Assembly (NCBI GenBank): GCA_020849665.1
Contig: JADLFX010000003.1
Location: 13,896-77,895, forward strand
Length of the DNA stretch: 64,000 nt
Source of the DNA: Planctomycetota bacterium
GTDB taxonomy: Bacteria > Planctomycetota > UBA1135 > UBA2386
Direction: 5' to 3'
A model generated the notes under the pieces. That model saw only the letters and a program-made list of their open reading frames with translations, made no database searches and had not been told where the DNA came from. This document shows, one piece after another, positions 7,329-48,963 of this stretch; positions within the stretch are counted from its first letter, which is position 1, and every line of letters starts with the position of its first letter. A program made the translations under genes and the position numbers.

Positions 7329-8821
7329 TGCTCTGGCTCCTGCTGCTCCTGCCCTTCGCCGCGGGGGTCCTCGCGTTGCTCCTGCCAGGCCACGCCGGGC
7401 GCCGCACGGTGCTGCTCGGCGCCGCTGCCACGCACTTCGCCCTGGTGCTGGTGGCGCTGGCCGGCGCGGCGCCGCCCGCCTGGGGCGGGCGGCTGGCCCT
7501 CGACGGCCTGGGCGGCCTCTTCCTGCTGCTGAGCAGCGGTCTCTTCGCCGTGGCCTCCGCGTACGCGGTGGGCTACCTGCGGCGCGAACGCGTCCTCGAG
7601 CGGCTGCAAGGCACCGCGCGCCCGGATTTCCTCGAGGGCGGGCTCTTCGCCAACGTGCCCGAGGCGGTGTTCACGGCCACGCTGCTCTGCTTCCTCGGCA
7701 CCATGACCGGCGTGTGCCTCGCCCACGACTTCCAGCTCCTCTGGGTGCTGGTCGAGGGCACCACGCTGGCCAGCGCGCCGCTGATCTACTTCCACCGCCA
7801 CCATCGCTCCCTGGAGGCCTCGTGGAAGTACCTCCTGCTCTGCTCGGTGGGGATCTCGATCGCGCTGCTGGGCACGCTCTTCCTCGCCGTGGCGGGCACC
7901 GACGCGCAGGGGGGCTCGACGCCGCTCCTGATGACCGCGCTGGCGGCGAAGGCCGACACGCTGGCGGTGCCGTGGGTGAAGGCGGCGTTCGTGCTGATCC
8001 TCGTGGGCTATGGCGCCAAGATGGGTCTCGCGCCGATGCACAACTGGCTGCCGGACGCGCACAGCGAGGCGCCTTCGCTCGTGTCGGCGCTGCTCTCGGG
8101 CGCGCTGCTGAACTGCGCCTTCCTGGGCGTGCTGCGCGGTCTGCAGGTGTGCGGGATGGTGGGCGAGGCGGCATTCGCGCGCGAGCTGCTGCTCGGCTTC
8201 GGCCTCGTGTCGCTCGCGATCGCCGCCCTCTTCGTGCTGCGTCAGGCAGACTTCAAGCGCCTGCTGGCGTACTCGAGCGTCGAGCACATGGGACTGCTGG
8301 CGGTCGGGGTCGGTCTCGCCGGCGCGGGCGGCGAGGCCGCGATGCTGCATGCGGTGAACCACACCGTGGCCAAGGGCATGCTCTTCCTGCTCGCCGGCAA
8401 CCTGCTGGCGGCGTTCCACACCAAGGAGATCCACCAGGTGCGCGGGGCACTGCGCGTCCTGCCGGTGTCGGGCGGACTCTGGCTGCTGGGCCTCTTCGCG
8501 ATCACCGGGACGCCGCCCTTCGGCATGTTCCACAGCGAACTGGCGCTCGTGCGCGCGGCGCTGGAGCAGGGCCGCCCCGTCGTGGCCGCGGGGGTCCTGC
8601 TCGGCCTCGGCGCGGTGTTCGCCGGCATGTCGGCGGTGTTCCTGCGGATGTGCCTGGGCGCGCCGCGCGGGGCGGTGGCGGCGCCGGCGCGCGAGGAGTT
8701 CAGCGCGATCCTGCCGCCCGCGCTGCTCGCCACCCTGGCTCTCTGGCTCGGCCTGCAGGTGCCGGGCGAGCTCGCCGCGCTGTTGCGCGCCGCCGCGGCG
8801 CAGCTGGGGGCGCTGCCATGA
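7328..8821 (+). CDS. Antiporter-like membrane subunit, HyfF/NuoN/NuoM family (EhrD-type)
   Basis: The ATG at 7328 overlaps the upstream TGA. Motifs: GYGAKMGLAPMHNWLPDAHSEAPSLVSALLSGALLN, KRLLAYSSVEHMG. Tail of track ORF 7001..8821. Confidence 0.9.
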   Translation: MLWLLLLLPFAAGVLALLLPGHAGRRTVLLGAAATHFALVLVALAGAAPPAWGGRLALDGLGGLFLLLSSGLFAVASAYAVGYLRRERVLERLQGTARPDFLEGGLFANVPEAVFTATLLCFLGTMTGVCLAHDFQLLWVLVEGTTLASAPLIYFHRHHRSLEASWKYLLLCSVGISIALLGTLFLAVAGTDAQGGSTPLLMTALAAKADTLAVPWVKAAFVLILVGYGAKMGLAPMHNWLPDAHSEAPSLVSALLSGALLNCAFLGVLRGLQVCGMVGEAAFARELLLGFGLVSLAIAALFVLRQADFKRLLAYSSVEHMGLLAVGVGLAGAGGEAAMLHAVNHTVAKGMLFLLAGNLLAAFHTKEIHQVRGALRVLPVSGGLWLLGLFAITGTPPFGMFHSELALVRAALEQGRPVVAAGVLLGLGAVFAGMSAVFLRMCLGAPRGAVAAPAREEFSAILPPALLATLALWLGLQVPGELAALLRAAAAQLGALP

Positions 8822-10302
8822 GCGACCGGGGACTCGCGGTGCGGCCGGGCGAGCCGGTGGCGCGCGCGGCGCTGCCGGTGCTCGAGCCCCGCGCCTGGCG
8901 CGACGCGATCGTCGCCGACGTGGCCGCCGGCGGCCGCCTCCTGGCGCTGTTCGGCGCGGGCGAGGCCGCGGCGCCCACCCTGCACGCGATCCACCAGGAC
9001 CGCGCCGGGCAGCTGCGCTGGAGCCTGGCGCCGGTGCGCGGGTCGTGGCCCAGCCTGACCAGCGAGTGCCCGCAGGCGCACCTGTTCGAGCGCGAGATCT
9101 GGGAGGCGAGCGGTGCGGTGCCGGAGGGGCATCCGTGGCTCAAGCCGGTGCGCCGCGCGCCGGGCACGGCGGCGAGTGACGGCGCGCCGCCGTTCTTCGC
9201 CGTGGCCGGCGACGACGTGCACGAGGTCGCGGTCGGCCCGGTGCACGCGGGCGTGATCGAGCCGGGGCACTTCCGCTTCCAGTGCCACGGCGAGGCGGTG
9301 TTCCACCTGGAGATCGCGCTGGGCTACCAGCATCGCGGCGTGGAGGCGCTCCTCGCCCAGGGTCCGGACCGGCGCACGCTGCACGTCGTGGAGACCCTGG
9401 CCGGCGACACGACCCTCGGCCACGCCACCACCGCGTGCGAGGCATTGGAGGCGCTGCTCGGCGTGTCCGTGCCGCCGCGCGGCCATGCGCTGCGCGCGCT
9501 CGGCCTGGAGCTGGAACGGCTGGCCAACCACGTGGGCGACCTGGGTGCGCTGGCCAACGATGTGGGCTTCCTGCCCACGGCCGCGTACTGCGGCCGGCTG
9601 CGCGGCGACTTCCTCAACCTCACCGCGGCGCTGTGCGGCAACCGCTTCGGGCGCAGCCTCGTGCGCGTGGGCGGGACCGGCTTCGACGTGGATCCAGAGC
9701 GCGCCGCCGCGATGCGCGACCGCCTCGCCGCGGCGGCGCGCGACGTCCGCGACGCGGTGGCCCTGCTCTTCGGCGCGCCGATCGTGCGCGCGCGCTTCGA
9801 GGGCACCGGCGTCGTGACGGCGCCGGCCGCCCTGGACCTCGGGCTCGTGGGCATGGCAGCGCGCGCGTGCGGGCTGCCGCGCGACGTACGGCACGAGTTC
9901 CCGCCGCTGGCCTACCGCGCCGGCCGGCCACCCCTGGTGGTGCTGGAGGGGGGCGACGTCATGGCGCGCGCCCGGCTGCGCGCCGAGGAGATCGAGCGTT
10001 CGGTGGGCTTCGTCGACGGGCTCCTGGCGGCGCTGCCCGCGGGGCCGGCGCGCGCGGCGGCGGCGTGGCCCGCGCCGCTGGCGCCGGGCCACGCGGTGTT
10101 CGGCCTCGGGGAGGGCTGGCGCGGCGAGCTCGTGCACGTGCTCCTGACCGACGCCGCGGGCCGGATCGAGCGCTGGAAGGTGGTGGATCCCTCGTTCCAC
10201 AATTGGAGCGCCCTGGCCATGGCGTTGCGCGGCGAGGAGATCTCGGACTTCCCGCTCTGCAACAAGAGCTTCAACCTCTCGTACTGCGGGTTCGACCTGT
10301 GA
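8818..10302 (+). CDS. NuoC-NuoD/HycE/HyfG-like 'large subunit' lacking the [NiFe] cysteine ligands (EhrL-type)
   Basis: ATGA overlap at 8818-8821. There is an N-terminal NuoC-like region (HLFEREIWEASGAVPEGHPWLKP). The HycE-like core follows (GPVHAGVIEPGHFRFQCHGEAVFHLEIALGYQHRGVE). The position of the RxCGxCxxxH motif reads ETLAGDTTLGH. The C-terminus reads NKSFNLSYCGFDL instead of DPCxxCxxR. Confidence 0.85.
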   Translation: MSDRGLAVRPGEPVARAALPVLEPRAWRDAIVADVAAGGRLLALFGAGEAAAPTLHAIHQDRAGQLRWSLAPVRGSWPSLTSECPQAHLFEREIWEASGAVPEGHPWLKPVRRAPGTAASDGAPPFFAVAGDDVHEVAVGPVHAGVIEPGHFRFQCHGEAVFHLEIALGYQHRGVEALLAQGPDRRTLHVVETLAGDTTLGHATTACEALEALLGVSVPPRGHALRALGLELERLANHVGDLGALANDVGFLPTAAYCGRLRGDFLNLTAALCGNRFGRSLVRVGGTGFDVDPERAAAMRDRLAAAARDVRDAVALLFGAPIVRARFEGTGVVTAPAALDLGLVGMAARACGLPRDVRHEFPPLAYRAGRPPLVVLEGGDVMARARLRAEEIERSVGFVDGLLAALPAGPARAAAAWPAPLAPGHAVFGLGEGWRGELVHVLLTDAAGRIERWKVVDPSFHNWSALAMALRGEEISDFPLCNKSFNLSYCGFDL

Positions 10303-10309
10303 GCACACC

Positions 10310-11095
10310 ATGATCCCGATCCTGCGGACGCGCCTGCGCCAGGGGCAGCGCACGATCGCGTTCCCGGCGGCCCCGCCGGCGCTCCCCGAGCTCTTTCGCG
10401 GCATGCCGGTCGTGGACACCGCCAGGTGCCCCGACGGCTGCCGCGCGTGCGCCGATGCCTGCCCCACGCAGGCGATCGCCGTGGGGAGCGGCGCGGAGCC
10501 GCGCGTGGCCATCGACCTCGGCCGGTGTCTCTTCTGCACCGAGTGCACCGAGGCCTGCCCCGAGGGCGCGATCCGCTACGGCCAGGAGTACGCGCTGGCG
10601 ACGAGGCGCCGCGAGGACCTGGTCGCGACCGGCGCGCCGCTGCGGCTGGCCGCGGCCCTGGACGAGCGCTCGCGCCGGCTCTTCGGCCGTTCCCTCAAGC
10701 TGCGGCAGGTGAGCGCCGGCGGCTGCAACGGCTGCGAGTCGGACGTGAACGTGCTCAACACGATCGTGTTCGACCTGGCGCGCTTCGGCATCCAATTCGT
10801 CGCCTCTCCGCGCCATGCCGACGGCCTCCTGATCACCGGCCCGGTCACCCGCAACATGCGCCTCGCCCTGCACAAGACCTGGCAGGCGGTGCCCGAGCCG
10901 CGGCTGGTGGTCGCGGTGGGAGCGTGCGCGATCTCCGGCGGGCCCTACCTGGGCAGCGCCCAGGCCCACGACGGGGCGGGTAGTCTCCTGCCCGTGGACC
11001 TCTTCGTGCCCGGCTGTCCGCCGCATCCCATCACCATCCTCGATGGGCTGCTCCGCCTGCTGGGCCGGATCCCGTCGGGGACACGGACGCCATGA
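10310..11095 (+). CDS. Fusion of a 2x[4Fe-4S] ferredoxin domain (HycF/NuoI-like) with a NuoB/HycG-like small subunit (EhrS-type)
   Basis: 261 aa. Ferredoxin motifs: CPDGCRACADACP and CLFCTECTEACP. NuoB-like motifs: GGCNGCE, GLLITGPVTRNM, VGACAISGGPY, VPGCPPHP. Confidence 0.85.
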   Translation: MIPILRTRLRQGQRTIAFPAAPPALPELFRGMPVVDTARCPDGCRACADACPTQAIAVGSGAEPRVAIDLGRCLFCTECTEACPEGAIRYGQEYALATRRREDLVATGAPLRLAAALDERSRRLFGRSLKLRQVSAGGCNGCESDVNVLNTIVFDLARFGIQFVASPRHADGLLITGPVTRNMRLALHKTWQAVPEPRLVVAVGACAISGGPYLGSAQAHDGAGSLLPVDLFVPGCPPHPITILDGLLRLLGRIPSGTRTP

Positions 11096-15727: not shown

Positions 15728-18286
15728 ATGCGTCCGCCCAGATCCCCGTTCCGCACCCTGGCCGCCCTCGGCCTCCTGCTCCTGCCGTGGGCGCCCGGTC
15801 CAGGGCTCGCGGCCCAGTCCGCCCCGATCACCGTCGGCGCCGACCGCTTCGGCGTGAAGGCCCCGCGGCCCCCCGTGAGTCCAGGGACCCTCCCGCCGGT
15901 GGCCGCCGAGGGCTGCACGGACCGGCAGATCGAGCCGGTCCTCCCGCCGGTGCCCAAGGGCCGCGGGGGCAATCCCCAGCCGAAGGACCCGCCGGCCGTC
16001 GAAGCGGATCTGCGGGGCCAGCGGGACACCGGGCAATTCGTGTACTTCAAGAACGCCCTGGTGCAGCCGGCGGGCGCACGCCGTTCCACGGCGTCCACGA
16101 TCACGCCGAGCTGCGTCAACGTGCAGGACACCGTCCTGCAGACCGGCAACTGGTACGCGGCCCTGTCCCGGGACAGCGGCCAGACCTGGACCAACCTCGA
16201 TCCAGCCACGTTCTTCCCCGCGCCCGACGGAGGATTCTGCTGCAACCAGCGGGTCGAGTACGTGCCCTCGCACGACATCGCCTTGTGGCTCCTGCAGTAC
16301 GGCTACAGCGCGACCACAGCCAAGGGCAGCTACCAGCTCGCGGTGGCCAACGGCCGCGACGAGCTGCGCAGCGGCAACGCCGCCGACTGGACGCTCTACA
16401 CGTTCGATCCGACCGACTTCGGCTTCGCGTTGCCGGCGGTGCTCGACACGCCGGACATCGCCTTCAACAACGACTGGCTCTACCTGTCGAGCAACGTCAT
16501 CAACGGCGCGACGTTCCTGGGCGCCGTGGTATGGCGCATCAGCCTCCAGGACCTGCGGAACAACGGCAACGTCACCTTCAGCTACGAGACCAACGCGGTG
16601 ATGGGCGGGCACTCGTATCGCTTCGCCAACCGGGCCGGGGATGGCACCAACATGTACTGGGGCACGCTGCTCGACACGACCACGCTGCGCGTGTGGCGCC
16701 AGAACACCATCGGCATCCAGCGCGACTACGTCGACGTGACCACGGCGGCCTGGCAGAACTCGGGTACGGCCGGCTGCCAGGGCCCGGACGGCCGCGATTG
16801 GCTGGGCTCGGCCGTGGGGCGGATCCGCGGCGCCTGTGGCACGGCCAGCGAGCTCGTGTTCGCGTGGGCCAGCCACGGCAACGGCGGCAACCGGCCGTAC
16901 CCCTACACGCGCGTGACCCGGCTCCGCGTGAGCAACCGCACGCTGCTCGGCGAGCACGACGTGTACAACATCGATCGGTGCTGGGCCTACATGGCCCTGG
17001 ACAGCAACACCCTCGGCCACGTGGGCGGCGTCGTGGCCATCGGCGGGCCGTCGATCCACGTGCGGACGTCGGCGTTCGTGATCGACGGATACGACGCCTG
17101 GAGCGGCGTCACCGCCTTCCGCGTCGGCGACCCCACCAACAATCCTCCGGGGCAGGCGTTCGGCCACTACTTCGACGTGCAGCGTTCCTCGGTCGATGCC
17201 CGCACGTTCATCGGCACGGGCAACCTCATGGTCGGTGGCGACCAGCAGGCCCACGTGGAGACCCGGCATCTGTGGTTCGGGCGCGACGACTACCAGCCGT
17301 CGTGGGCGAGGCTCGAGGTGAACTCCACGCCCGTGCAGGGAGTGGCAGTGACGCTGGATGCCACGGACATCAGCGGCCAGCGAAACGGCACGACCAATCT
17401 CGTCCGCAACTTCGTGCCCGGTCAGGGCGTCGAGGTGGATGCGCCCGCGCGGCCGTCGCTCGGAGGAACGGAGTTCCAGTTCCAGCGCTGGGTGCTCAAC
17501 GCGACCCCCCAGCCGGAGGGCCAGCGCAAGCTGGTGATCCGCAGCCTGGGTTCCGCAGGCGCCACCGCGGAGGCGCGGTATCTGGCGGTCCGCTCGATCC
17601 GCTTCGAGGCGAGCGGCCATCTGACCGTTCCCGTGGCGGTGCAGGTCCCCCCCGACCTGGACGGCAACGGCAACGGCCGGACCGTGTTCACGCGCCGCTA
17701 CCTGCAGACCAGCCGGATCTCGATCACGCTCGCGGACCCGCTGGTCCAGGGTCACCCATTCAAGGCCTGGGTAGTCAACGGCAACCGCTATCCGCTCGGC
17801 CAGCAGACCGTGGACTTCACCCTCGGCGGCGCCAACGTCACGGCCACGGCGGAGTTCTACGAGCGCACGCCGGGTGCGTTCCGTGGCTTCGGGACCGGTT
17901 GCGCGGGCAGCAATGGCATCGACGTGCACAGTGGCGGGGGCACCCCGGAGACCAACCAGACCTTGCAGTGGCGGCTCCAGGGTGCGCCCGGCCTGAGCGC
18001 GGCCGTGCTGCTGCTCGGCGCGTCCAACACCAGCTGGGGTGGCATCCCTCTGCCGGCGCCCGTGCCCGGCGGAGGGGACTGCCTCGTGCGAGTCTCGGTG
18101 GACGTGACCCTGCCCACCTCGACCAACGCCAGCGGCGACGCTGCGATCCTGTTCGCGGTGCCGGGCGACGTCGCCCTCATCGGGGCCCGCGTGTTCACCC
18201 AGTACGCAACGGTGGATCTCCCGGCCAACCAGCTCGGGCTCACGCTGAGCAACGGCTTGGAGACCCTGGTGGGCGGCCTGCGTTGA
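15728..18286 (+). CDS. Large secreted protein with a BNR/Asp-box motif and a C-terminal module shared with two other secreted proteins in the window
   Basis: 852 aa. Signal peptide MRPPRSPFRTLAALGLLLLPWAPGPGLAAQ. Asp-box SRDSGQTW. No other family recognised. The C-terminal roughly 125 aa starts at FGTGCAGSNG. Confidence 0.75.
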   Translation: MRPPRSPFRTLAALGLLLLPWAPGPGLAAQSAPITVGADRFGVKAPRPPVSPGTLPPVAAEGCTDRQIEPVLPPVPKGRGGNPQPKDPPAVEADLRGQRDTGQFVYFKNALVQPAGARRSTASTITPSCVNVQDTVLQTGNWYAALSRDSGQTWTNLDPATFFPAPDGGFCCNQRVEYVPSHDIALWLLQYGYSATTAKGSYQLAVANGRDELRSGNAADWTLYTFDPTDFGFALPAVLDTPDIAFNNDWLYLSSNVINGATFLGAVVWRISLQDLRNNGNVTFSYETNAVMGGHSYRFANRAGDGTNMYWGTLLDTTTLRVWRQNTIGIQRDYVDVTTAAWQNSGTAGCQGPDGRDWLGSAVGRIRGACGTASELVFAWASHGNGGNRPYPYTRVTRLRVSNRTLLGEHDVYNIDRCWAYMALDSNTLGHVGGVVAIGGPSIHVRTSAFVIDGYDAWSGVTAFRVGDPTNNPPGQAFGHYFDVQRSSVDARTFIGTGNLMVGGDQQAHVETRHLWFGRDDYQPSWARLEVNSTPVQGVAVTLDATDISGQRNGTTNLVRNFVPGQGVEVDAPARPSLGGTEFQFQRWVLNATPQPEGQRKLVIRSLGSAGATAEARYLAVRSIRFEASGHLTVPVAVQVPPDLDGNGNGRTVFTRRYLQTSRISITLADPLVQGHPFKAWVVNGNRYPLGQQTVDFTLGGANVTATAEFYERTPGAFRGFGTGCAGSNGIDVHSGGGTPETNQTLQWRLQGAPGLSAAVLLLGASNTSWGGIPLPAPVPGGGDCLVRVSVDVTLPTSTNASGDAAILFAVPGDVALIGARVFTQYATVDLPANQLGLTLSNGLETLVGGLR

Positions 18287-18320: not shown

Positions 18321-18365
18321 CCGCCTGGCGCACTACCCTCCCATGCGTTTCCCAGAGGAGGTGCC

Positions 18366-19391
18366 ATGTACGCGATCACGACCATGACGGCCCTCGCCCT
18401 GCTCGCCGCGCCGCTGCTGGCGCAGGGCGACGGCTTCCGGCGCGAGGGGACGCCCGCGCAGCGCAAGGTGAAGGACGCCCTGGAGGGCAAGGCGCCGCCG
18501 GCGCTCGCCGTGCAGGGGTGGTTGAACACCGACGGGAAGGAGCTCGCGCTGGCGAACCTGCGCGGCAAGGTGGTGCTGCTCGACTTCTGGGGCGTCTGGT
18601 GAGGACCCTGCAGGGGTGCCGTGCCGCACCTCCTCGAGCTGGCAGCGAAGCACAAGGACCGCGGGCTGGTGGTGGTGGGGGTCCACACCACGGCCTCGGG
18701 TGAGCAGATGCCCGCATTCGTTGCGGAGCAGAAGATCACCTATCCGGTGGCCGTGGACGTCGACAACCAGACCACGAAGGCGTTCGCGGTCGACAGCTAC
18801 CCCGACTACTACCTGATCGACCGCAAGGGCATCCTGCGGGTGGCCGACCTCGCCAACGGCGAACTCGATCGCGCGCTCGAGGCGCTGCTCGCCGAGCCGG
18901 CCACAGCGGGTGCACCGCCTGCAGCGGAGAAACCCGACGCGGAGGCGCTCTTCACGACGGCCCTGGCCGAGGCGAAGCGCAGCGACCGCAAGGTCCTCAT
19001 CCACGTGCACGGGCCCGGTTGACCCTGGTGCACCAGGCTCGAGGAGTTCCTCGGGCAGAAGGACGTGGCCGGACTGCTCGCCAAGGACTACGTGCTCCAG
19101 GCGATCGACACCGGCAAGCAGCGCAATGCGGAGGCCGTGGTCGCACGCGTGCGGACCGGCAAGGGGCGCGGCATCCCGTGGATGGTCGTGCTCGACCCCG
19201 AGGGCAAGGCCCTGGTCACCAGCGACGGACCCAAGGGCAACATCGGCTGTCCGTACGAGCCGCACGAGATCGCGTACTTCCGCACGATGCTGGAGCAGAC
19301 CCGCAAGCGGCTCGGCGACGCCGACCTCGACGCGATCGTGAAGGCCAACGAGGCATTCGTGGAGCGCCTGAAGCAGGCGCAGAAGAAGTAG
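18366..19391 (+). CDS. Exported tandem thioredoxin-fold protein (TlpA/redoxin-like domain plus thioredoxin_7-like domain) with two selenocysteine (UGA) codons, each in a U-x-x-C redox motif
   Basis: Track ORFs 18366..18602, 18621..19022 and 19065..19391 are all in one frame. They are interrupted only by TGA at 18600-18602 and 19020-19022. Read-through gives [26 protein letters not shown] and KVLIHVHGPG-U-PWCTRLEEFL. A GAGGAGG RBS lies 6 nt before the ATG. The N-terminal signal peptide is MYAITTMTALALLAAPLLAQG. Confidence 0.75.
18613..18633 (+). promoter_or_regulatory. Candidate bacterial SECIS hairpin for the UGA at 18600
   Basis: It starts 10 nt after the UGA. Stem GGGGUGC / GCACC(U)CC is 7 bp with one bulged U. 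The loop is CGUGCC. Folded by hand. Confidence 0.5.
19038..19055 (+). promoter_or_regulatory. Candidate bacterial SECIS hairpin for the UGA at 19020
   Basis: It starts 15 nt after the UGA. Stem CUCGAGG / CCUCGGG is 7 bp including one G-U pair. The loop is AGUU. An alternative perfect palindrome CCUGGUGCACCAGG lies at 19024-19037. Confidence 0.45.
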
Positions 19392-19490: not shown

Positions 19491-21710
19491 CTATCGCTTC
19501 CCGGAGCCGATCACCTTCTTGGTCCGGGGCATGATCCGGCGCAGCATGTCGAACACGCGCATCCGCCGCAGGAAGCGGACGACCGCCATGTTCTTGAGAG
19601 CCAGGTGCTCGTCGCGGATGCGCTCGAGATCCGCCACGTAGCCGAGATTCTGCGGCGGGACACCCACTACGGCAGGGGCGGCGGGCAGCTCCAGGTTGCC
19701 GAGCAGCGTGGTGCCTTGGGCCAGGAGACCCAAGGTCTCCAGGTAGCCCAGGACGCGGCTCTGGACGTCCTCGGTCACGGGGGACAGCGGGAGATAGAAA
19801 TCGCCGGCGACATCGCCCGTGTGCAGGAACCGGAGCTTGGCGCTGGCTGCTGCGGCGGCCATGAGCCCGCACAAGCGTGCCTCGGGATAGGACAGGCCTT
19901 CCAGGCCTGCGCAGACGCGGAGGGACCCCGCCGGCACCGCGAACACGGGCGGGATCACCGTCCCGGTGAGGAGGAGGTCCTGCAAGCTCGCGTCCGGTAG
20001 GTACGGGAAGAGCTGAGCGTTGGCCGGGCGGAGCCAGAGGAAGGCGCCGCACCCCGCACCATGCTCCATGAGCGTGGTCACCAGCCGGTGCAGCGAGCCG
20101 GGATCGAAGCGCACGCCGGCCTTCACGAACACGACGCAGCGCTGCGGTTCGATCCGGAGCCACGGTGGAGGATCCAGGGGGCTGAAGCGTGCCCATCCCC
20201 CGGGGAGTTCGGGTGGGGGAGTGCCATCGAGCAGGACCGCGACCTGCCACTCGGGCGAGTTGGCCACCTGCGCCCGTAGCGAGTCGATGGACGCCTTGAG
20301 CGCCGCAGCATCGGCCATGCATGCGTCCAGGACCACCAGGCCCTTGCCCGGCAGGGCTGGATTCTCGTAGCCGACCTCGAGGAAAGGAGGGACGTGGGTC
20401 GGTTCCGCCGCGGGGGCCGAACGGCGTTCGCGCTCGACCATGGCTGAGAAGAGATCGAGCTTCTGGCGCAGGATGGTCTCGGGATTCGTGAGACTGCGCA
20501 TGCGCGCCGACGCGTTTGCGCAGAGTGTGGCGCGCAGTCCCTGGTCCGAGAGTACGCGGCGCAGCGCCTTGGCCAACGCGTCGGGGTCGCCCCCGGCGAA
20601 GACCAGGCCGCTGGCGCCATCCTCGACCATCTCCGCGTGCCCGCCGCTGTCGGAGACCACGCACGCTGCACCCAGGCCCATCGCCTCGAGCACCGCGTTG
20701 GGGTGGTTGTCCCAGGGCGCGGCGTGGACGAATGCCCGCGAATCACGCACCGCGGAGAGCACCTGGAGGCGCGGCAGATTGCCGGGCCGCACGACCCGGG
20801 CGAGCACGTTCGCCGGGAGATGTCGTTGCAGGAACGCATCGAACGACTCCCCGTTGCGCCAGGCCTCGCGACCCAGGAACACGAGCTTCAAGTCCGGAAA
20901 CTCGGGCGCGAGCAGGGCGAACGCCTGGGCCAGCGTATCGCTGCCCTTCCGGGGCTCGATGCGGCCGACGGCGACCAGGTAGGGCGAGCCGCCGGTCAAG
21001 GAAGCCGGTGCCGGAGGCAGGTTGGCGGGCAGGTCCACGAAGTAGGGGATCACCGCGCGCAGTTCGGGAAGTGCCCCGCCGAAACGCCGCTCGTAGCGCT
21101 GCAGGAGTGAGCGCGAGGGCGTCTGCAGCGCATCGGCGGCCCGCAGGCAGTATTCCTCGCGTTCCATGCGAAACCGATGTCTGGTTTCGCCGAGCTCGTA
21201 CAGGTGCTTGCTGACCTCCAGGAGTTCGCGCGTGCTGGTGTGACCGATGACGCACACGGGCGGGAACACATTCCTCGCGCCCGACCGGCGGCGCCGGATC
21301 ACGTAGAAGGCCTCGGCGAAGTACTCGGGAACCTCGATCACGTCGAGGCCGACCTCCGCGTGCAGGTACTCCACGAACGCGGCGATCTGGAACGCCGCCA
21401 GGTTCGATGGGTCGAAGGCCCAGAGCGTCGAGCGCCCCGCATACGCCGTCGGGTTGGTGTCGAAGAACCGTGCTCCTGCGTAGGGCTGTTTCTGCTCGTC
21501 GAAGAGGCCCAGCCGGTGGATGGTGAGCCCGCCGGAGCGATAGTGGCGAAGCGTCAGGTGCGGCGCCGTTTCACCGAACCATGCGGAGTTGGTGACCACG
21601 TGGACCTGGTGGCCAGCAGCCACGAAGCGCTTGGCGGCGGCCTCCGTGTAGGTGGCGATGCCGCCCCCGGGGAACGGTGGATACTCGTGCGAGATCAGAC
21701 AGATCTTCAT
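19491..21710 (-). CDS. Glycosyltransferase family 4 (N-terminal GT-B domain) with a roughly 350-aa C-terminal extension of uncertain, GT2-like nature
   Basis: Track ORF 19491..21749. MKICLISHEYPPFPGGGIATYTEAAAKRFVAAGHQVHVVT is a typical GT4 N-terminus, so the internal ATG at 21710 is preferred over 21749. A later motif is VHAAPWDNHPNAVLEAMGLGAACVVSDSGG. Confidence 0.85.
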   Translation of the reverse strand: MKICLISHEYPPFPGGGIATYTEAAAKRFVAAGHQVHVVTNSAWFGETAPHLTLRHYRSGGLTIHRLGLFDEQKQPYAGARFFDTNPTAYAGRSTLWAFDPSNLAAFQIAAFVEYLHAEVGLDVIEVPEYFAEAFYVIRRRRSGARNVFPPVCVIGHTSTRELLEVSKHLYELGETRHRFRMEREEYCLRAADALQTPSRSLLQRYERRFGGALPELRAVIPYFVDLPANLPPAPASLTGGSPYLVAVGRIEPRKGSDTLAQAFALLAPEFPDLKLVFLGREAWRNGESFDAFLQRHLPANVLARVVRPGNLPRLQVLSAVRDSRAFVHAAPWDNHPNAVLEAMGLGAACVVSDSGGHAEMVEDGASGLVFAGGDPDALAKALRRVLSDQGLRATLCANASARMRSLTNPETILRQKLDLFSAMVERERRSAPAAEPTHVPPFLEVGYENPALPGKGLVVLDACMADAAALKASIDSLRAQVANSPEWQVAVLLDGTPPPELPGGWARFSPLDPPPWLRIEPQRCVVFVKAGVRFDPGSLHRLVTTLMEHGAGCGAFLWLRPANAQLFPYLPDASLQDLLLTGTVIPPVFAVPAGSLRVCAGLEGLSYPEARLCGLMAAAAASAKLRFLHTGDVAGDFYLPLSPVTEDVQSRVLGYLETLGLLAQGTTLLGNLELPAAPAVVGVPPQNLGYVADLERIRDEHLALKNMAVVRFLRRMRVFDMLRRIMPRTKKVIGSGKR

Positions 21711-21714
21711 GGCT

Positions 21715-23082
21715 TCATCGTGCCGCGCGGAGTGCGGACCCGGAGTCATGCACGGAGTCCTGCGTCGTATCGGCTGGGTGCCACCGCAGCGCGGCGGGTT
21801 GCAGCCCGGCGCAGTCCTTGTCGTAGCTGCGGGCGCGGTCCAGCCACGCCGCGAGGTGGGGCATCAGCTTCGCCTTGCCGCCCGCCTGGTCGAGTCGGAA
21901 CTCCTCCAGCATCCAGCGCAGGTCCTGCACGAACACGAGGGGGCCCGAGGAGAGCGGGAGCATCCGCTCGTCGAGCTTCTGGACCAGGCGCGTGAGGTGG
22001 TGTGCGTCCTCGTACGCCCCGGACGCGTACAGGCGCTCGGCGGGCTGCACCAGCGGCGCGAGCGAGCCCATCAACGCGAGGTGCAGCGGTGGGAGGAAGC
22101 CTGCGGGAGCGCCCCAGGAGTCGAGCTGGAGCTTGGTGCCGAGCAGCGGCCGCCGGCGATTGCCGCGCCAGTACCACGGCAGCACGCAGCGGCGGACGTA
22201 GTGCCACTGCTCCACTCCGAAGTCCCGGTGCATGGTGTCGCGGAACAGCACCCAGTTCCGATCCACGGGGCGTCCGCCGAAGATGGTGTCGTGGGGGCAG
22301 TGGAACACGTAGGCCCCTGGATCGGAGACGCACGCTGCGCCCATCAGCTCTGCACGCAGGCAGAACTCGTGGTCATCCAGCCCGTAGCTGCCCTCGTACG
22401 CACGGTCGAACCCGCCAAGGCGCCGCCACAAGCTCTTCCGGAACGACAGATTCGCGCCGAACGGCACCAGGTAGTTGGTCGCGGGGAAATGGGCGAACTC
22501 GAGCGTGGTGTACATGCTCGTGAACGGCCCCGACTGCCCCTGCAGGTACTCGAAACGGGGTCCCGAACCGATCGCCAGGGGGTGGCGCAGGTGGATGGCC
22601 TGATGGGATTCGACGGTGTACCGGTCGAACACGCAGTCTGAATCCGACACCAGGATGAGGCCGTCCAGGGCGTTGGCGATGCCGCTGTTGCGCATCGTCT
22701 GGAGGCGATAGCGACCCGCGCGAGGATGGCGCAGGATCCGGTACGGGAGGCCGCACCGCCGCGCGGCCGCCTCCGCGGCGTCTGGGGTCCCGTCGGTGGA
22801 ACCGTCGTCCGACACCACGAGGAGGTCGGGCACCACGGAGCCGCCCGCTACGGACTCGATGACCCGGCCAATCACGTCGGCCTTGTGGTAGGAAACGAGG
22901 ACAAGGGTGACGGGATGCGGGCGGGTGTCCACGGGAAGGTCGGAAGAGTCTACAAGCACGCGCGACCCGGGCTGCAGCACAGTCTTCGCGGCCGCGGAAC
23001 GTCCGTTGGGAGCGATCTGAACCGCGGAACTGGAACGGGACGAGCCGGCTCTGGATCCGGCGCGTGGCACACGCAGCGCCAC
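21715..23082 (-). CDS. Glycosyltransferase family 2 with a C-terminal extension
   Basis: 455 aa with a GTG start. Motifs: VTLVLVSYHKADVIGRVIESV, LLVVSDDGSTDGT, LVSDSDCVF. The true start may be internal. Confidence 0.75.
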   Translation of the reverse strand: MALRVPRAGSRAGSSRSSSAVQIAPNGRSAAAKTVLQPGSRVLVDSSDLPVDTRPHPVTLVLVSYHKADVIGRVIESVAGGSVVPDLLVVSDDGSTDGTPDAAEAAARRCGLPYRILRHPRAGRYRLQTMRNSGIANALDGLILVSDSDCVFDRYTVESHQAIHLRHPLAIGSGPRFEYLQGQSGPFTSMYTTLEFAHFPATNYLVPFGANLSFRKSLWRRLGGFDRAYEGSYGLDDHEFCLRAELMGAACVSDPGAYVFHCPHDTIFGGRPVDRNWVLFRDTMHRDFGVEQWHYVRRCVLPWYWRGNRRRPLLGTKLQLDSWGAPAGFLPPLHLALMGSLAPLVQPAERLYASGAYEDAHHLTRLVQKLDERMLPLSSGPLVFVQDLRWMLEEFRLDQAGGKAKLMPHLAAWLDRARSYDKDCAGLQPAALRWHPADTTQDSVHDSGSALRAAR

Positions 23083-23140: not shown

Positions 23141-25561
23141 CTAGGGCGCGATCCGCGTCGCGATCGCGTCGGAGAAGTAGCCGCCGGTGCCGGCCTGCAC
23201 GAACGCCTGCGAGAAGAACGTGACGCCGGCGAGGCCGGGATCGGCCGGGATCGTCAGCCGCCAGGTCGCCGAGCCGGTCACGTCGGTCTGGATCGCGAAC
23301 GCCAGCAGCCCGCCGGGATGCACGAGCAGCGGGCCGAACCCGGAGAGCGGCAGCACGGTGGGCGAGCCGCCCACGAGCACCACGCCCGGGGCGTTGGGCC
23401 ACGCGCGGCTCACCATGTAGTCGACGCCCTGGCCGGGCGCGGGCAGGCCCTCGCCCCACAGGCGCAGCGGCGCGGTCCTGGGGTCGGGCGCGTTGTAGCC
23501 GAGGTGGCCGCCGGGCTCGGCCCGGTTGACCTGCCGCGGCGTGGGGATCGCGAAGGTCACGTCCACCGCGGGGAAACCGGGCAGCCTGCCGGTCGAGGTG
23601 TCCGCCGACTGGGCGCCGAACTCGATCCAGTCCAGATTGGTCACGCCGTCCCGGTCGTAGAGCGCCAGCTCCTCGCCGTCCGCGCTCAGCTTGAAGTTGG
23701 CGTGGAGCGGTCCCTGGGTCCCGTTCTCGTCGGCCCAGACGATCAGGGTCCCGCCGGGCGGCAGGGTCTGGCCATCGGGGATCCGCCACTTGGCAGGCTC
23801 CGCCACCGTGTCGGTCAGGTAGAGGCCGCCCACCGCGACGCTCTGTGTGCCGGTGTTGACGAGTTCGATCCAGTCCTCGCGCTCGCCGGCCTCGTCGCGG
23901 ATGCCGTTGTCGTTCTTGGCCACGAACTCGCTGATCTGGACCGCACCCTCAGGCGGCACGCCGCGCACGCGGTAGCTGCGGGCGGTGAACTCGGCCAGCG
24001 GCGGCAGGAACGCCATGGCGCCGCCGGTGGCGAGATCGCCGTTGGCGCCCACGTAGTACTCCACGAGCCGGAGCGGGCCCTGCGGCGGGATCGTGGCGCC
24101 GTACACGCCGTCGTTGGCGGCGCCGTCGCCATGGTTGCCGTCGTCGAACATCGGCGTCTCGACAAACCGCCCCTGCACGCGGTGGTGGAGCGTCACGGCG
24201 GTGGCCGCGGCGCCCGAGACCGTGACGTTCACGGTCACGCCCTGCTGCGGGGTCGGGGCCGCCGGCGTGTGCGTCAGGTTGGCGAGCGTCGGCGCCACCT
24301 TGCGCAGTTCCGCGTGCGAGGCGAGGAACGCGTTGCGGTCCTGGAAGAAGGGCTGCAGGCCGGGGACGGTGACGATCCCGACGTTGAGCGCGGTGGTCAG
24401 GTTCTGGTCGAAGAACTGCAGCGTGTAGATGCTGCGCGTGTCGGCGGCGACGAGTGGCCGGATCATGGCGCGCAGCTGCTGGATGCGCGCGCCGAGCGTC
24501 GACCAGGAGAACTCCGGCAGCATGGTCCGGTAGTGCGCGAGGTAGCGGGCGCGCCATTCCGGCCGCTGGACGATGCGGGTCAGGAGCGGGCGGGGGTTGG
24601 CGCTGTCGAACTCGCGGAAGAACGGATCGATCCGGGCGACGCCGGTCGTGGTCAGGCCGTCGGTGAGGCCGCCGAAGCCGTTGTTCACGTCCCAGGGCAG
24701 GATCACCATCCGGCCATGGCAGAGGTCCTCGTAGAGGTAGAAGTTCTTGCAGGTCCGGCCGAGGTAGCTGTCCAGCCACGCGGTGAGGTTCGCGACCGCG
24801 AGGAAGCGCAGCGCGTTGTCGACGTCGAGGACCTTCGGCAGCTCGACCGGAAGCTGCGCGACCGGCGTGTTGTTGAGGACGTCGATCGTGTGGATGAGGT
24901 CCACCCAGGGCGTGTGGCTGCCGTTCTCGGTCTTGAGCTGGTAGGCACTCAGGTACGGCGTCTGGCTGGTGCCCAGCCAGGTGAGCGCGGAGTTGGCGTA
25001 CGGCACGTTGCCCGTCCGCTCGCCGCGGTACCGGTTGCCAGCGTCCTCCGGCAGCCACTCCTCCAGGAAGTCGCGGTTGATCTGCTGCGTGTTGACGAAG
25101 AGTCCCAGGTCCTCGCCGTTGACCACGAACTTCACGTAGCACGACTTCGGCGCAGGCAGGTACCTGCGCATGAACTCGTAGCCGGCGACCTCACGCACGA
25201 AGCTCGGGTCCCAGATGTTGTTGGTGATGTTCAGCGTGTTGTAGCCCTGCACGTCCTGGCCGGGCACGAACTCGTCGAACGAGAGCTTCCAGGGCCGCTT
25301 GTCGGTCTTGTTGGCCGGCAGGAAGCGGTAGGTCGAGAAGCCGCGGTGCCGCGCGCCGACGTCCCGGTACACGACGTTGTCGATCTTGACGTCGACCTTG
25401 ATGTAGGTCTGGGAGGCGTAGTTGGCCGCCATCACCGTGCGCCAGTCGGCCGGTGCCGTGACCTCGATCGTCCGGATGGTGGCGATGTCGTAGAGGTCCT
25501 GTGCGGCGGTTGCGCCGACGACCATCGCTGCCGCCAGGAGCGTGCGGGACAGAGCGTGCAT
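23141..25561 (-). CDS. Secreted CotH-kinase-family protein with a lamin-tail (LTD) domain and the shared C-terminal module
   Basis: Internal ATG of track ORF 23141..25624 gives signal peptide MHALSRTLLAAAMVVGATAAQ. The CotH-like core includes DKRPWKLSFDEFVPGQ, YVKFVVNGEDLGLFVNTQQI and KNFYLYEDLCHGRMVILPWDVNNGFG. The LTD reads QISEFVAKNDNGIRDEAGEREDWIELVNTGTQSVAVGGLYLTD. Confidence 0.85.
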   Translation of the reverse strand: MHALSRTLLAAAMVVGATAAQDLYDIATIRTIEVTAPADWRTVMAANYASQTYIKVDVKIDNVVYRDVGARHRGFSTYRFLPANKTDKRPWKLSFDEFVPGQDVQGYNTLNITNNIWDPSFVREVAGYEFMRRYLPAPKSCYVKFVVNGEDLGLFVNTQQINRDFLEEWLPEDAGNRYRGERTGNVPYANSALTWLGTSQTPYLSAYQLKTENGSHTPWVDLIHTIDVLNNTPVAQLPVELPKVLDVDNALRFLAVANLTAWLDSYLGRTCKNFYLYEDLCHGRMVILPWDVNNGFGGLTDGLTTTGVARIDPFFREFDSANPRPLLTRIVQRPEWRARYLAHYRTMLPEFSWSTLGARIQQLRAMIRPLVAADTRSIYTLQFFDQNLTTALNVGIVTVPGLQPFFQDRNAFLASHAELRKVAPTLANLTHTPAAPTPQQGVTVNVTVSGAAATAVTLHHRVQGRFVETPMFDDGNHGDGAANDGVYGATIPPQGPLRLVEYYVGANGDLATGGAMAFLPPLAEFTARSYRVRGVPPEGAVQISEFVAKNDNGIRDEAGEREDWIELVNTGTQSVAVGGLYLTDTVAEPAKWRIPDGQTLPPGGTLIVWADENGTQGPLHANFKLSADGEELALYDRDGVTNLDWIEFGAQSADTSTGRLPGFPAVDVTFAIPTPRQVNRAEPGGHLGYNAPDPRTAPLRLWGEGLPAPGQGVDYMVSRAWPNAPGVVLVGGSPTVLPLSGFGPLLVHPGGLLAFAIQTDVTGSATWRLTIPADPGLAGVTFFSQAFVQAGTGGYFSDAIATRIAP

Positions 25562-25709
25562 GGAGGACTCCGCAGGAGAGGAGGAGCAGTGGCGGGGCCA
25601 GGCGGCGAGCGCGGGTTGTAGCACAAGGCCCGGGCCGGTGCCCGTCAGGGCCGGCCACGGCCGCGCCGCACAGCGGCAGGGTCCCGAACTCCTTCCCGAG
25701 GCGTCCCAG

Positions 25710-26240
25710 TCACGCCTTGCCGCACTCGCACTCGATGCAGCCGTGAGTGGCGCACACCTTGCAGGTCTGCAGGAGGCTCTTGTGCAGGGCTTGGCGGGCG
25801 CGGTGGCGCCGCACCTTCAGGTTGTTCGGGGTGATGCCGAGGCGCCGCGCGGCCGCGGCGGTCTCCTCGCCGCCGAGGTCCACCGCACGCAAGAGCTCGG
25901 CCTGGGCCCCGGGCAGCGCGTCGATGGCGGTGCCGAGGCAGGCGCAGACCGCGGCCAGGGTCTCGGCCGGCGCGGCCAGGTCGTCTTCGGGCACATCCGG
26001 GGCGCTGCGCACCCGCTCGCGGCCGCGGCGCTCGATCAGGTCGGCCAGCGTGTTGCGCAGGATCCGGTAGAACCACGCCACCAGCCGCTCCTCGTCGCGC
26101 ACGGAGTCGGCGTGGGCCAGTGCCTTCAGCAGCGCCTCCTGCACGGCGTCGGCGGCGAGCTCGGGATCGCCGACGCGACGGCGCGCGAACGCCACGAAGG
26201 CGGTGAGGTTCTCGAGCAGGCGTTCGCTGCGCTGGGTCAT
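25710..26240 (-). CDS. ECF sigma factor with a Cys-rich C-terminal extension (CorE-like / ECF44-type)
   Basis: Internal ATG of track ORF 25710..26396: MTQRSERLLENLTAFVAFARRRVGDPELAADAVQEALLKA... It ends in LLQTCKVCATHGCIECECGKA, with further Cys in AAVCACLG. Confidence 0.8.
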   Translation of the reverse strand: MTQRSERLLENLTAFVAFARRRVGDPELAADAVQEALLKALAHADSVRDEERLVAWFYRILRNTLADLIERRGRERVRSAPDVPEDDLAAPAETLAAVCACLGTAIDALPGAQAELLRAVDLGGEETAAAARRLGITPNNLKVRRHRARQALHKSLLQTCKVCATHGCIECECGKA

Positions 26241-30560: not shown

Positions 30561-32003
30561 TCAGCGCCTGCCGGTGTCCGTTCCCCCGATCAGCCAGCGC
30601 GGCGCGTGTGCCGCGTCGAGCAGGCGTTCGGCCAGCCATGCCGTCGCCAGGAGCCACGCCGGCACGGCCCAGTGCAGCAGGAGCCGGGTGGCGCTCGAGC
30701 GCAGGTGATGCCGCACGTCGGGCTCCGGCGAGAGCAGGAACGCCGCCACGACGGAGAGCAGGCCGCAGCCCAGGAAGGCCAGGGCGGGGCGCGATGGGCA
30801 GCGCCCCACGATCCGCCGTCGCGTGAGCGCCAGCGCGGCCAGGAGCAGGTAGCAGGTGCCGAAGCGGCGCGGGTGCAGGGCCTGCGCCAGGAGGCCGCCC
30901 AGGATCTCGGGGAGCCGCATGAGGCGTGCGGGCAGCCGGTCGGCGCCGCCGAGGTACTGGGCCACCAGGACGTCGGGACGGGTGCGCAGCCAGGGCAGCA
31001 GCCAGGCGATGGCGGCCACCCCCCCGAGCAGCGCGATCCCGCCGAACAGCGCCAAGGTGCGCGGCGTCAGGCGCGCGCGGAGCTCCCCGGCGGCGAGCGC
31101 CAGGGCGCCCACGCCCAGCGCCGCCAACGCGGGAACGGGACCGGGCGCGGCGAACGTCGTGAGCCGCTGCTGCAGGGGCAGCCAGAGCGCGAACGCCAGC
31201 GTGGCGCCGAGCGTGGCGGCACCGTGCCGTGCGCGCGGTCCGGTCCACGTGGTCAACGCGACCAGGGCCGCGGCGTAGACCGTGCCCTCGGGCTTCGCCA
31301 ACGGCAGCAGGAACGCCGCCGCGCCGAGCAGGAGGTGATCGTCGAGCAGCAGCGCGGCCAGCACGCCGCTCAGCGCCAGCGTCATCAGGAGCTCGGCGTA
31401 GCCCGAGTCCACGCCGCCGCCGCCGTTGCCCACCAGCGCCGGCAGGAGCGCCACGCCGACGGCGGCCAGGAGCGCCACGCCCTGCGGCGCGCCGCGGCGC
31501 GCCACGGCGAGTCCGGCCAGCGCAGCCAGGAGCATGTGCAGGAGCGGGAACAGGATCCGGCCGCCGTTGCCCAGCAGCTGCAGCATGGCGGCGAGCGCGA
31601 AGGGTTGCAGGAGTGGGTAGGCGCGGCTGTGGTGGTACACCCCGGGGTCGGTGAAGAACGGCTGGTCGAGCCCGCGCGGATCGGCGAGGACGCGTGCGCG
31701 CAGGCCCCAGGAGACCACGCCGTCCCATTCGCGCTCGGCCGTGGCCACGGCGCCGTGCCCGACCACGGCCAGCGCGAACGCGGTGACCGCGAGCACCAGG
31801 CCCGTCAGCCAGCGCGGCGGCGGGCCGGCGCCCGGCAGCGCGGCGGGCAGGGCGACGCCCGCGAGGAACACGCCGACGGCGACGGAGAGCGGGAGCAGGA
31901 CCGCGGGCACGGGCCACAGGAGCAGCGCCAGTGCGTGGGCGAGGAGGCCGAACAACGCGAGGCCAAGGACCGCGCCACGCACCCAGCGCCAGCCGGGTTC
32001 CAC
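30561..32003 (-). CDS. Large polytopic membrane protein, possibly a GT-C-fold (ArnT/PMT-like) glycosyltransferase
   Basis: 480 aa with a GTG start and more than 10 hydrophobic helices. It is the last gene of a three-gene minus-strand operon. The functional call is weak and based only on architecture. Confidence 0.6.
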   Translation of the reverse strand: MEPGWRWVRGAVLGLALFGLLAHALALLLWPVPAVLLPLSVAVGVFLAGVALPAALPGAGPPPRWLTGLVLAVTAFALAVVGHGAVATAEREWDGVVSWGLRARVLADPRGLDQPFFTDPGVYHHSRAYPLLQPFALAAMLQLLGNGGRILFPLLHMLLAALAGLAVARRGAPQGVALLAAVGVALLPALVGNGGGGVDSGYAELLMTLALSGVLAALLLDDHLLLGAAAFLLPLAKPEGTVYAAALVALTTWTGPRARHGAATLGATLAFALWLPLQQRLTTFAAPGPVPALAALGVGALALAAGELRARLTPRTLALFGGIALLGGVAAIAWLLPWLRTRPDVLVAQYLGGADRLPARLMRLPEILGGLLAQALHPRRFGTCYLLLAALALTRRRIVGRCPSRPALAFLGCGLLSVVAAFLLSPEPDVRHHLRSSATRLLLHWAVPAWLLATAWLAERLLDAAHAPRWLIGGTDTGRR

Positions 32004-32004
32004 G

Positions 32005-32424
32005 TCAGCGGGTCTCCAGGCGCAGCGCCTTGCCCTCGCCCACCAGCACGGCCTGGGCGAAGCGTCCCCCCGGCGAGGGCAGGCGAGCGATCCGGCGGCC
32101 GGAGTAGGTCGTCGCCTCGGGCGGGACCCGGTCGGCGTGCACCAGGAGCCGCGGCCAGAGCAGCGCCGGCGCGAACTCGAGCGCCCCCTTGCCGTCGCCG
32201 CGGAACAGGATCACGGAGTCGGCGGGCGTGGTGCGCAGGCGCTCGACGGCCGCCGCGCCGCGCAGGAACGCGGTGCGGAACAGGTAGCGCGTGTCGCCCT
32301 CCGCGCGGCAGGCGCGCACCTCGGCCAGGCGCTGGCCGACCACGTCGTGGGGGACGCGCGCCAGGCCGATGCCGGCGTGCAGGCAACCCAGCGCGACCAG
32401 CACCCCGCCCCAGGAGACGCGCAT
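32005..32424 (-). CDS. Small hypothetical protein with an N-terminal TM/signal anchor
   Basis: Internal ATG of track ORF 32005..32673 (MRVSWGGVLVALGCLHAGIG...). The ATG overlaps the upstream stop (ATGA at 32422-32426). It ends 1 nt before the next gene. Confidence 0.5.
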   Translation of the reverse strand: MRVSWGGVLVALGCLHAGIGLARVPHDVVGQRLAEVRACRAEGDTRYLFRTAFLRGAAAVERLRTTPADSVILFRGDGKGALEFAPALLWPRLLVHADRVPPEATTYSGRRIARLPSPGGRFAQAVLVGEGKALRLETR

Positions 32425-34356: not shown

Positions 34357-34450
34357 GCGGCGCGCGCCGGCCCTGCGGGGGGCGGGGCGCGGGCCGTGCG
34401 GCGCGGTCCTTCTGGCGGCGTGGCGGGCGGGGTAACCTCTGCCGCCCCGC

Positions 34451-36186
<1,736 letters not shown>

Positions 36187-36190
<4 letters not shown>

Positions 36191-45997: not shown

Positions 45998-46083
45998 GCT
46001 GGAGACTCGCGAGCGTGCGGCGCTGCGTTGCCCGTGCCGGGGCGCGCGGCTAGGGTCGGGCCGGTACCCCGACGGAGCCTCAT

Positions 46084-48950: not shown

Positions 48951-48963
48951 CGTCGCCGCCGGC

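Follow-up and report, generated by a model that had tools for sequence, protein, structure and literature searches.

We analysed 64,000 nt of DNA from Planctomycetota bacterium GCA_020849665.1 (contig JADLFX010000003.1, positions 13,896 to 77,895 of the forward strand, 73% G+C), hereafter called the window, and found that its region 18366-19391 is very probably one genuine gene with two selenocysteine (Sec, U) codons, a prediction that we draw from sequence comparison. Its product is most likely, judging from its motifs and domains, an exported thiol/selenol-disulfide oxidoreductase of ~36 kDa. Both UGA codons are shared by independent lineages, both stand where relatives carry a nucleophilic Cys, and each is followed by a hairpin resembling a bacterial selenocysteine insertion sequence (SECIS).

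Results

Two in-frame UGA codons in one gene

The reading frame that starts with the ATG at 18366 and ends with the TAG at 19389-19391 is broken solely by the TGA at 18600-18602 (codon 79) and the TGA at 19020-19022 (codon 219). The open reading frame (ORF) listing of the window splits the gene into three pieces (18366-18602, 18621-19022 and 19065-19391). It thereby reproduced what an earlier interpretation made from the letters alone (the sequence-only reading) had described, namely three ORFs of the same frame that yield 341 codons when both TGAs are read through. The elements of the gene are the following.

18366-19391, forward strand: single two-Sec gene, 341 sense codons plus TAG, with two in-frame UGA codons; predicted exported two-domain thioredoxin-fold selenoprotein
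18355-18361, forward strand: Shine-Dalgarno-like GAGGAGG, 4 nt 5' of the ATG, as read from the sequence
18600-18602, forward strand: UGA 1, predicted Sec79, first residue of W-U-G-P-C82; aligned to the leading Cys of WCGPC in the homologs P0003, P0009, P0011, P0012 and P0020
19020-19022, forward strand: UGA 2, predicted Sec219, first residue of G-U-P-W-C222; aligned to the leading Cys of WCGWC in P0003, P0041, P0044 and 80 genomic Cys forms

The GAGGAGG placed just upstream supports 18366 as the sole start with a good ribosome-binding site. The G+C content at third codon positions of the three segments (0.87, 0.88 and 0.95) is as expected for coding sequence in this frame. When the six frames were scanned for TGA triplets flanked on both sides by strong coding signal, only 18600 and the TGA at 37318, in a formate dehydrogenase (FDH) gene, were flagged; the scan missed the TGA at 19020, and we suspect that the Ala/Pro-rich linker just upstream of it failed the second-position GC filter. 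A promoter and terminator scan around the gene gave no match. The two units, each made of a UGA and its SECIS-like hairpin, lie 420 nt apart within one ORF.

Conservation of both UGA codons

Both TGAs were found at identical codons in 8 further independent lineages, which gives nine Sec/Sec lineages including the window (the others being L001, L002, L003-5, L110, L164, L216, L217 and L218). L001 is the complete genome CP036290.1 of the cultured planctomycete isolate Pla163, in which a fragment of the gene is annotated as Pla163_01980, and L002 and L003-5 are two metagenome lineages; in all three the DNA shows three consecutive in-frame ORFs parted only by the active-site TGAs. The protein search had given odd fragments that start just past the first motif or end in '...HLGAPW', and this DNA revealed them as parts of such genes. 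L110 and L164, which have the short two-domain layout of the window's gene, came from a metagenome scan for FW[GA]xW-TGA-GPC. Searching with the C-terminal domain gave ~27 orphan proteins, 91-128 residues long, and almost every one starts just past the second motif. The DNA of three of these (L216, L217 and L218) carries both TGAs and encodes products 64-70% identical to the window's protein; the ~25 further clusters of orphan C-terminal fragments appear, from their sequences, to come from genes of this kind. Both UGAs are likewise kept in metagenomic relatives whose origin is unassigned, and the position of UGA 1 is also TGA in 10 other subfamily sequences. The window's own gene is present with both TGAs in four Logan metagenome contigs, three of them identical and one with 4 base differences. 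Since both TGAs recur in nine lineages and in these four contigs, sequencing error is excluded.

Across the nine lineages, which are only 45-81% identical among themselves, the stop at both sites is invariably TGA and never TAA or TAG. The orthologs are 64-70% identical in every one of the three segments and dN/dS (0.27-0.74) is below 1 in each, so that conservation does continue through both UGAs, a check that the sequence-only reading had proposed. It had also asked whether homologs exist in which the three pieces are separate genes: they are never separate functional genes, and the TGAs occupy the same codons in the eight other lineages. Its expectation that gene callers would report three fragments was borne out in every ortholog record that we examined, including Pla163 and several metagenome-assembled genomes (MAGs) at NCBI, where the gene appears as three fragments named 'hypothetical' or 'TlpA family'.

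Alignment with Cys-containing homologs gave a Cys/Sec pair at both sites, U79 facing the Cys of WCGPC and U219 the Cys of WCGWC. P0003 (DNA L209), from a Planctomycetota MAG, is a Cys/Cys fusion with WCGPC and WCGWC that aligns across both TGAs, and the single-domain Cys homologs P0009, P0011, P0012 and P0020, which carry FWGxWCGPC, are 62-67% identical in domain 1.

SECIS-like hairpins after each UGA

We then compared the sequences downstream of each UGA with the bacterial SECIS criteria of PMC13188914 (Fig. 2A), that is, a loop of 3-9 nt, a stem of 4-16 bp, a G in the first two loop positions, a distance of 16-37 nt from the UGA and a minimum free energy <= -7.5 kcal/mol. The energies given here come from minimal hairpins folded separately; the 61-nt segments after each UGA folded whole were unremarkable (z +1.3 and -0.65).

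18612-18634, forward strand: SECIS-like hairpin 1, 5+3 bp, loop CGUGCC, bulged U at 18631, -11.9 kcal/mol; conserved core 18614-18631; G22 U23 counted from the U of UGA
19037-19056, forward strand: SECIS-like hairpin 2, GCUCGAGG-AGUU-CCUCGGGC, 8 bp, -14.5 kcal/mol, z -3.9; encodes LEEFLG

Both hairpins, with spacings of 17 nt (site 1) and 22 nt (site 2), fall within the published bounds, and they lie within 1 nt of where the sequence-only reading had placed them. At site 2 the same 8-bp stem and the same loop are present in 9/9 Sec forms, with energies from -13.6 to -15.5 kcal/mol, and Pla163 preserves the stem by changing two pairs in compensation (C-G to U-A, G-C to C-G; counted on six of the nine sequences). 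As a negative control we used 80 loci retrieved by a genome scan for domain 2; all of them are Cys forms because the peptide pattern contained the Cys codon, which made Sec forms unfindable. The corresponding segment in these 80 homologs has a mean energy of -6.8 kcal/mol (sd 2.7), and 2/80 reach -13.6. Since the Sec forms have a stable fold and nearly all Cys forms do not, the site 2 hairpin tracks the TGA and not the protein sequence; the Sec forms owe their LEEFLG peptide to this SECIS.

At site 1, 7/7 sequences of the window's clade have the hairpin. In the four that were counted pairing is 100%, with one compensatory pair, and a rare GGU/AGU codon is used invariantly. In the relatives with three domains (described below) the hairpin lies ~15 nt further downstream, at +27 to +44, in varying register. 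Thus the conservation in orthologs on which the sequence-only reading had made its hairpins depend was found in all nine Sec forms at site 2 and throughout the window's clade at site 1, but at site 1 it does not extend in the same place to the three-domain relatives.

Among six two-domain genes, nucleotide identity peaks just past each UGA (0.79-0.85 vs a gene mean of 0.65), and nowhere in the gene is it higher than over hairpin 2. Past the UGAs the codons are identical in all six genes at 8/12 invariant residues, compared with 29/94 elsewhere. In all three loops considered here (site 1, site 2 and the FDH gene) the G is followed by U. In E. coli fdhF, a GU in this loop matters for the binding of SelB.

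Domains and export of the predicted protein

For the domain searches we used the translation with both U replaced by C.

18366-18425 (aa 1-20), forward strand: probable signal peptide of the Sec (secretion) type, MYAITTMTALALLAAPLLAQ, then GDG; judged by inspection only
18498-18842 (aa 45-159), forward strand: domain 1, ResA/TlpA-like redoxin; Pfam AhpC-TSA 76.1 bits (E 3e-21) and Redoxin 70.1 bits, with cut-offs of ~26
18951-19199 (aa 196-278), forward strand: domain 2, Thioredoxin_7 (DsbD-gamma/DsbH-like); Pfam PF13899 46.2 bits vs a cut-off of 27, E 5e-12

One TGA lies inside each of the two Pfam domains, at the first position of its CxxC motif. This agrees with the claim of the sequence-only reading that both UGAs replace the nucleophilic Cys of a thioredoxin-fold motif; the contexts are as it gave them, FWGVW-U-GPC at site 1 and HVHGPG-U-PWC at site 2. 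Domain 1 belongs to the TlpA-like/Redoxin group (PF08534, PF00578, cd02966) by a score above the cut-off together with its active-site motif, and its nearest solved structures are the DipZ C-terminal domain, Etrx1/2 and ResA (E 2e-22 to 1e-10). Domain 2 belongs to Thioredoxin_7, also by a score above the cut-off and by the alignment of G-U-P-W-C with WCGWC; in a PDB profile search it matched 3fk8, 2kuc, DsbH-like proteins and DsbD gamma domains.

More specific assignments gave negative results. In NCBIfam the models for ResA (82 vs 170), TlpA (55 vs 230), DsbE (45 vs 123) and StoA (49 vs 210) all stayed below their cut-offs, and therefore the window's protein is not an ortholog of ResA, TlpA, DsbE/CcmG or StoA. 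The protein is not a DsbD either, as the gamma domain gave only a weak local match (15-19 bits vs 330) and there is no membrane domain in its 341 residues. Two models for Sec families also fell short, NF041054 WAxxUGC_long (52 vs 300; its motif is UGC, not UGPC) and NF045694 TsoB (31 vs 805). In the whole of NCBIfam release 20.0, no model reaches its cut-off on the window's protein or on the Pla163 ortholog.

The protein is probably exported, considering that its hydrophobic N-terminus ends in AQ-G and that the orthologs have typical signal peptides. In these, the equivalent hydrophobic N-termini end in A-x-A/Q and most have a basic n-region.

Probable selenocysteine decoding in the host

The window holds a second gene with an in-frame TGA, whose surroundings are listed here.

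34436-36190, forward strand: NuoE/NuoF-like gene; its stop overlaps the ATG (36187) of the FDH alpha gene
36187-38970, forward strand: NuoG-fused FDH alpha gene, with its TGA inside the Pfam Molybdopterin domain
37315-37373, forward strand: FDH Sec codon (37318-37320) and SECIS; NCSRA-U-HAPTVAGL; hairpin of -15.7 kcal/mol with G23 U24 in the loop

The sequence-only reading had pointed to the FDH TGA as a textbook Sec codon, and we found it to be real and in frame. Its hairpin matches Rfam SECIS_3 with 49.9 bits (E 3.7e-11), below the gathering score of 63 of that family. The layout of 34436-38970 is the same fdhA-nuoEF arrangement that was reported for planctomycete P1 (PMC4807772). For other Planctomycetes, the same study describes complete sel gene sets alongside a selenoprotein operon fdhA-nuoEF, and gives single-Sec candidates named 'thiol-disulfide isomerase-like thioredoxin' (its Table S9). 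The FDH Sec codon and the SECIS_3 match thus indicate, indirectly, that the host decodes UGA as Sec.

Mosaic composition of the family

Domain 1 is 52-81% identical across single-domain Cys, single-domain Sec (L182), Cys/Cys, Sec/Sec and Sec/degenerate forms. The last kind is represented by L185 (oriented TGA at 1505), with Sec at site 1 and a degenerate W-Q-D-K-C at site 2. Because the forms of domain 1 are mosaic in this way, Cys-Sec exchange and the gain and loss of domains would seem to be frequent in this TlpA subfamily. The Pla163, L002 and L005 relatives have a third, middle domain, which is Thioredoxin_7-like and has lost its CxxC. Among the Cys-form relatives of domain 2, most are double-Thioredoxin_7 proteins of ~320-370 aa (WG[AG]NWCxWC ... 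FGAPWCGWC; L006-L085), a type widespread across Planctomycetota (199 confirmed genome loci). The C-terminal domain seems to derive from these proteins, as does the degenerate middle domain of the three-domain Sec forms.

Two further variants were observed. P0042 has W-S-E-P-C at site 1, with Ser in place of Cys/Sec, and continues into an unrelated C-terminal domain. P0122 (an ENA contig of 904 nt) encodes a C-terminal fragment that starts MRKRPGARCTRLEEFLG, in which G-A-R-C replaces U-P-W-C and the frame runs through the place of the UGA; a frameshifted assembly may explain it, or it may be a variant with neither Sec nor Cys.

The metagenome scan for FW[GA]xW-TGA-GPC gave at least 120 loci (L086-L205), and we conclude from this number that single-Sec TlpA-like proteins are very common. 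An abundant family among them has the form FWGxW-U-GPCRAMYPHERSLV (UGPCRAMYPHERSLV type), and its SECIS, CACGAGC-GGUC-GCUCGUG, encodes the conserved HERSLV. The hairpin of this family lies at +27 to +44, as in the three-domain relatives, whereas that of the window lies at +13 to +35. Two neighbouring Sec-TlpA genes are present in each of L153 (2061-2087 and 2585-2611, minus strand) and L187 (TGA at 540 and 1646, plus strand); as the copies are in different frames, these pairs are tandem paralogs and not one two-Sec protein. L105 has a second in-frame TGA 7 codons past its Sec codon and L195 has a TGA in ...EKIT*PNIY, at places where relatives have Tyr/Phe or Trp. Sequencing errors or pseudogenes may account for these extra TGAs, or some other cause.

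Other features of the window

At E <= 1e-5, Pfam matched nothing in five long ORFs whose coding signal is strong, listed here.

8242-10575, reverse strand: long ORF
15728-18286, forward strand: long ORF
30561-32210, reverse strand: long ORF
58380-60257, reverse strand: long ORF
61741-63999, forward strand: long ORF

One of these Pfam-less ORFs, of 852 residues, lies directly upstream of the selenoprotein gene. On the reverse strand, 23141-25816 encodes an 892-residue protein with a CotH kinase domain and a Lamin Tail Domain, within a glycosyltransferase-rich region (genes at 19491-23082, 46054-49058 and 57133-58335).

Discussion

Weight of the evidence

Several observations weigh against a two-Sec gene at 18366-19391. 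Gene neighbours differ at every ortholog locus, with no conserved operon and no adjacent CcdA/DsbD, so genomic context adds nothing. None of selA, selB, selD and tRNA-Sec lies within the 64-kb window, Pfam scans of 30 ORFs included. An Rfam search, run at the gathering threshold and at E up to 10, placed no SECIS family at either target hairpin, as is to be expected given that the only Rfam SECIS match in the window is the FDH gene, although it leaves both hairpins without the backing of an independent model. The site 1 hairpin is weak when taken alone (z -1.3), and of the three Cys homologs compared at this site, L210 reaches about the stability of the Sec forms. Of random positions in the window, ~20% have a downstream hairpin that passes the SECIS criteria, ~7-12% one as stable as site 1 and ~4% one as stable as site 2, which leaves site 1 not significant by itself. 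A single SECIS-1 common to the whole family was considered and rejected in view of the position of the hairpin in the three-domain relatives. Finally, the window's signal peptide has no basic n-region. With criteria this permissive in the window, the hairpins by themselves are weak evidence, and the weight has to rest on conservation and on the contrast between Sec and Cys forms: on conservation at site 1, where the background is high and one of three Cys homologs folds equally, and on the contrast at site 2. It is the ortholog comparison that raises the two-Sec reading well above chance.

Among the other explanations, the one that fares best accepts both Sec residues and proposes that termination at UGA 2 is physiologically used, with a 218-residue single-domain Sec-TlpA made when selenium or SelB is limiting and the two-domain form when selenium is plentiful. 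Single-domain Sec and Cys forms do exist (L182, P0009-P0012) and are presumably functional alone. Moreover, some truncated product is expected anyway, given that UGA-SECIS recoding in E. coli is reported to be only 30-40% efficient (PMC4513850). We nevertheless consider this unlikely: use of the truncated form is unsupported, domain 2 and its SECIS are as conserved as domain 1, and a limitation of selenium would shut off both products, because termination at UGA 1 yields a useless 78-residue peptide.

It is highly improbable that the UGAs are read through as something other than Sec, by near-cognate Trp or Cys insertion, by a suppressor tRNA or through a reassigned UGA. Such decoding would suit a window in which the Sec machinery is not directly seen and the site 1 hairpin is statistically weak, but TGA is the ordinary stop of orthologous genes in relatives (for instance at the ends of L001 and L110), both positions align with a nucleophilic Cys as classic Cys/Sec pairs do, the hairpins go specifically with the TGA forms, and the FDH in the same window has U-H-x-P and a SECIS_3 match. 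Least credible of all, and in practice excluded, is a pseudogene or a set of three separate small genes, with the TGAs as true stops and no full-length protein: gene callers and the NCBI annotation do give three ORFs and the GTG codons at 18621 and 19065 could be used as starts, yet the nine divergent lineages share TGA, and no other stop, at identical codons, purifying selection acts on all three segments, and the separate fragments would lack the redox motif and the first beta strand and be inert, since the remainder of each active site (GPC, xWC) is encoded between the TGA and the following start.

Proposed mechanism and significance

If 18366-19391 is one two-Sec gene, SelB carrying Sec-tRNA(Sec) would bind each hairpin in turn as the ribosome meets the UGA, and Sec would be inserted at positions 79 and 219. 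With each UGA served by SelB at its own hairpin, one polypeptide would need two recoding events. After export through the Sec (secretion) pathway, both domains would cycle between selenolate/thiol and selenylsulfide, the Sec being the attacking residue. By family resemblance, domain 1 (W-U-G-P-C) and domain 2 (G-U-P-W-C) may both serve as cell-envelope reductants, and that the protein acts as an envelope reductant is probable from its sequence. Electrons would probably come from a membrane protein of the CcdA/DsbD type and pass to oxidised envelope substrates. It is possible, although we hold it rather doubtful, that the two Sec centres form an intramolecular relay in series, in which the CcdA/DsbD-type protein reduces domain 2, domain 2 reduces domain 1 by selenylsulfide exchange, and domain 1 reduces the substrates. 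Such a relay would amount to a cascade of the DsbD-to-CcmG type fused in one polypeptide with selenium at both steps. As a disulfide relay with Sec at two steps in a row it would be the first of its kind, and also a natural bacterial case of two in-ORF SECIS served successively. Alternatively, the two centres may act in parallel, each on its own substrates.

Public annotations of Planctomycetota consistently miss this two-Sec gene. Most bacterial selenoproteins have one Sec, and at 30-40% per UGA (the figure reported for E. coli, PMC4513850) the yield of full-length protein would be low. Either these bacteria recode more efficiently or they tolerate the cost, and the existence of a cultured host makes the question testable. 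In addition, the TlpA subfamily offers a compact system for studying Cys-Sec exchange and the origin of SECIS inside coding sequence, and the two-Sec protein points to a selenium-dependent redox function in the Planctomycetota envelope.

Comparison with known systems

Domain 1 resembles the single-Sec TlpA-like/Redoxin selenoproteins (cd02966/PF08534, UxxC) in its fold, its W-U-G-P-C motif, its nucleophilic Sec and its in-ORF SECIS. Those families have one Sec and are annotated as two fragments, whereas the window's protein adds a second Sec domain and a second SECIS. ResA, TlpA, CcmG (DsbE), the DipZ C-terminal domain and Etrx1-2 share with it the WCxxC site, an export signal or anchor and an inferred role as reductant in an oxidising compartment, but they use Cys and none of them has a C-terminal Thioredoxin_7 domain. 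As for the Thioredoxin_7 proteins, the window's tail (GIPWMVVLD...TSDGPKGNIGCP) is 53% identical to P0041. Compared with DsbD gamma, DsbH and the double-Thioredoxin_7 proteins (P0041, P0044, L006-L085), the window's protein has no DsbD membrane domain and carries G-U-P-W-C in place of W-C-G-W-C; its N-terminal partner is TlpA-like, while that of the double-Thioredoxin_7 proteins is a second Thioredoxin_7.

In a 2026 review (PMC13188914), 119 prokaryotic selenoprotein families are counted, 'a small subset' of which have 2-3 Sec, several being fusion 'double selenoproteins'. Single-Sec TlpA-like, Redoxin-family and thiol:disulfide-interchange selenoproteins appear there as established predicted families (Table 1); a fusion of a TlpA-like and a Thioredoxin_7 domain with two UxxC centres is absent from the parts of that table that we examined. 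The sequence-only reading had called a fusion with two Sec unusual. Since a few double selenoproteins are known, two Sec in one bacterial protein are rare, but not unprecedented. The gene described here is a consistently mis-annotated, useful test case for double recoding and not a new principle. The known two-Sec proteins (MbdU, MduS, arsenite methyltransferase fusions and UxxU; Haft & Tolstoy 2025, as given in PMC13188914, Table 1) likewise require two UGA recodings, and several of them are fusions in which each half is itself a selenoprotein type. In contrast to those examples, which are mostly cytoplasmic, from anaerobes and engaged in metal or methyl chemistry, the window's protein would be an exported disulfide oxidoreductase of Planctomycetota.

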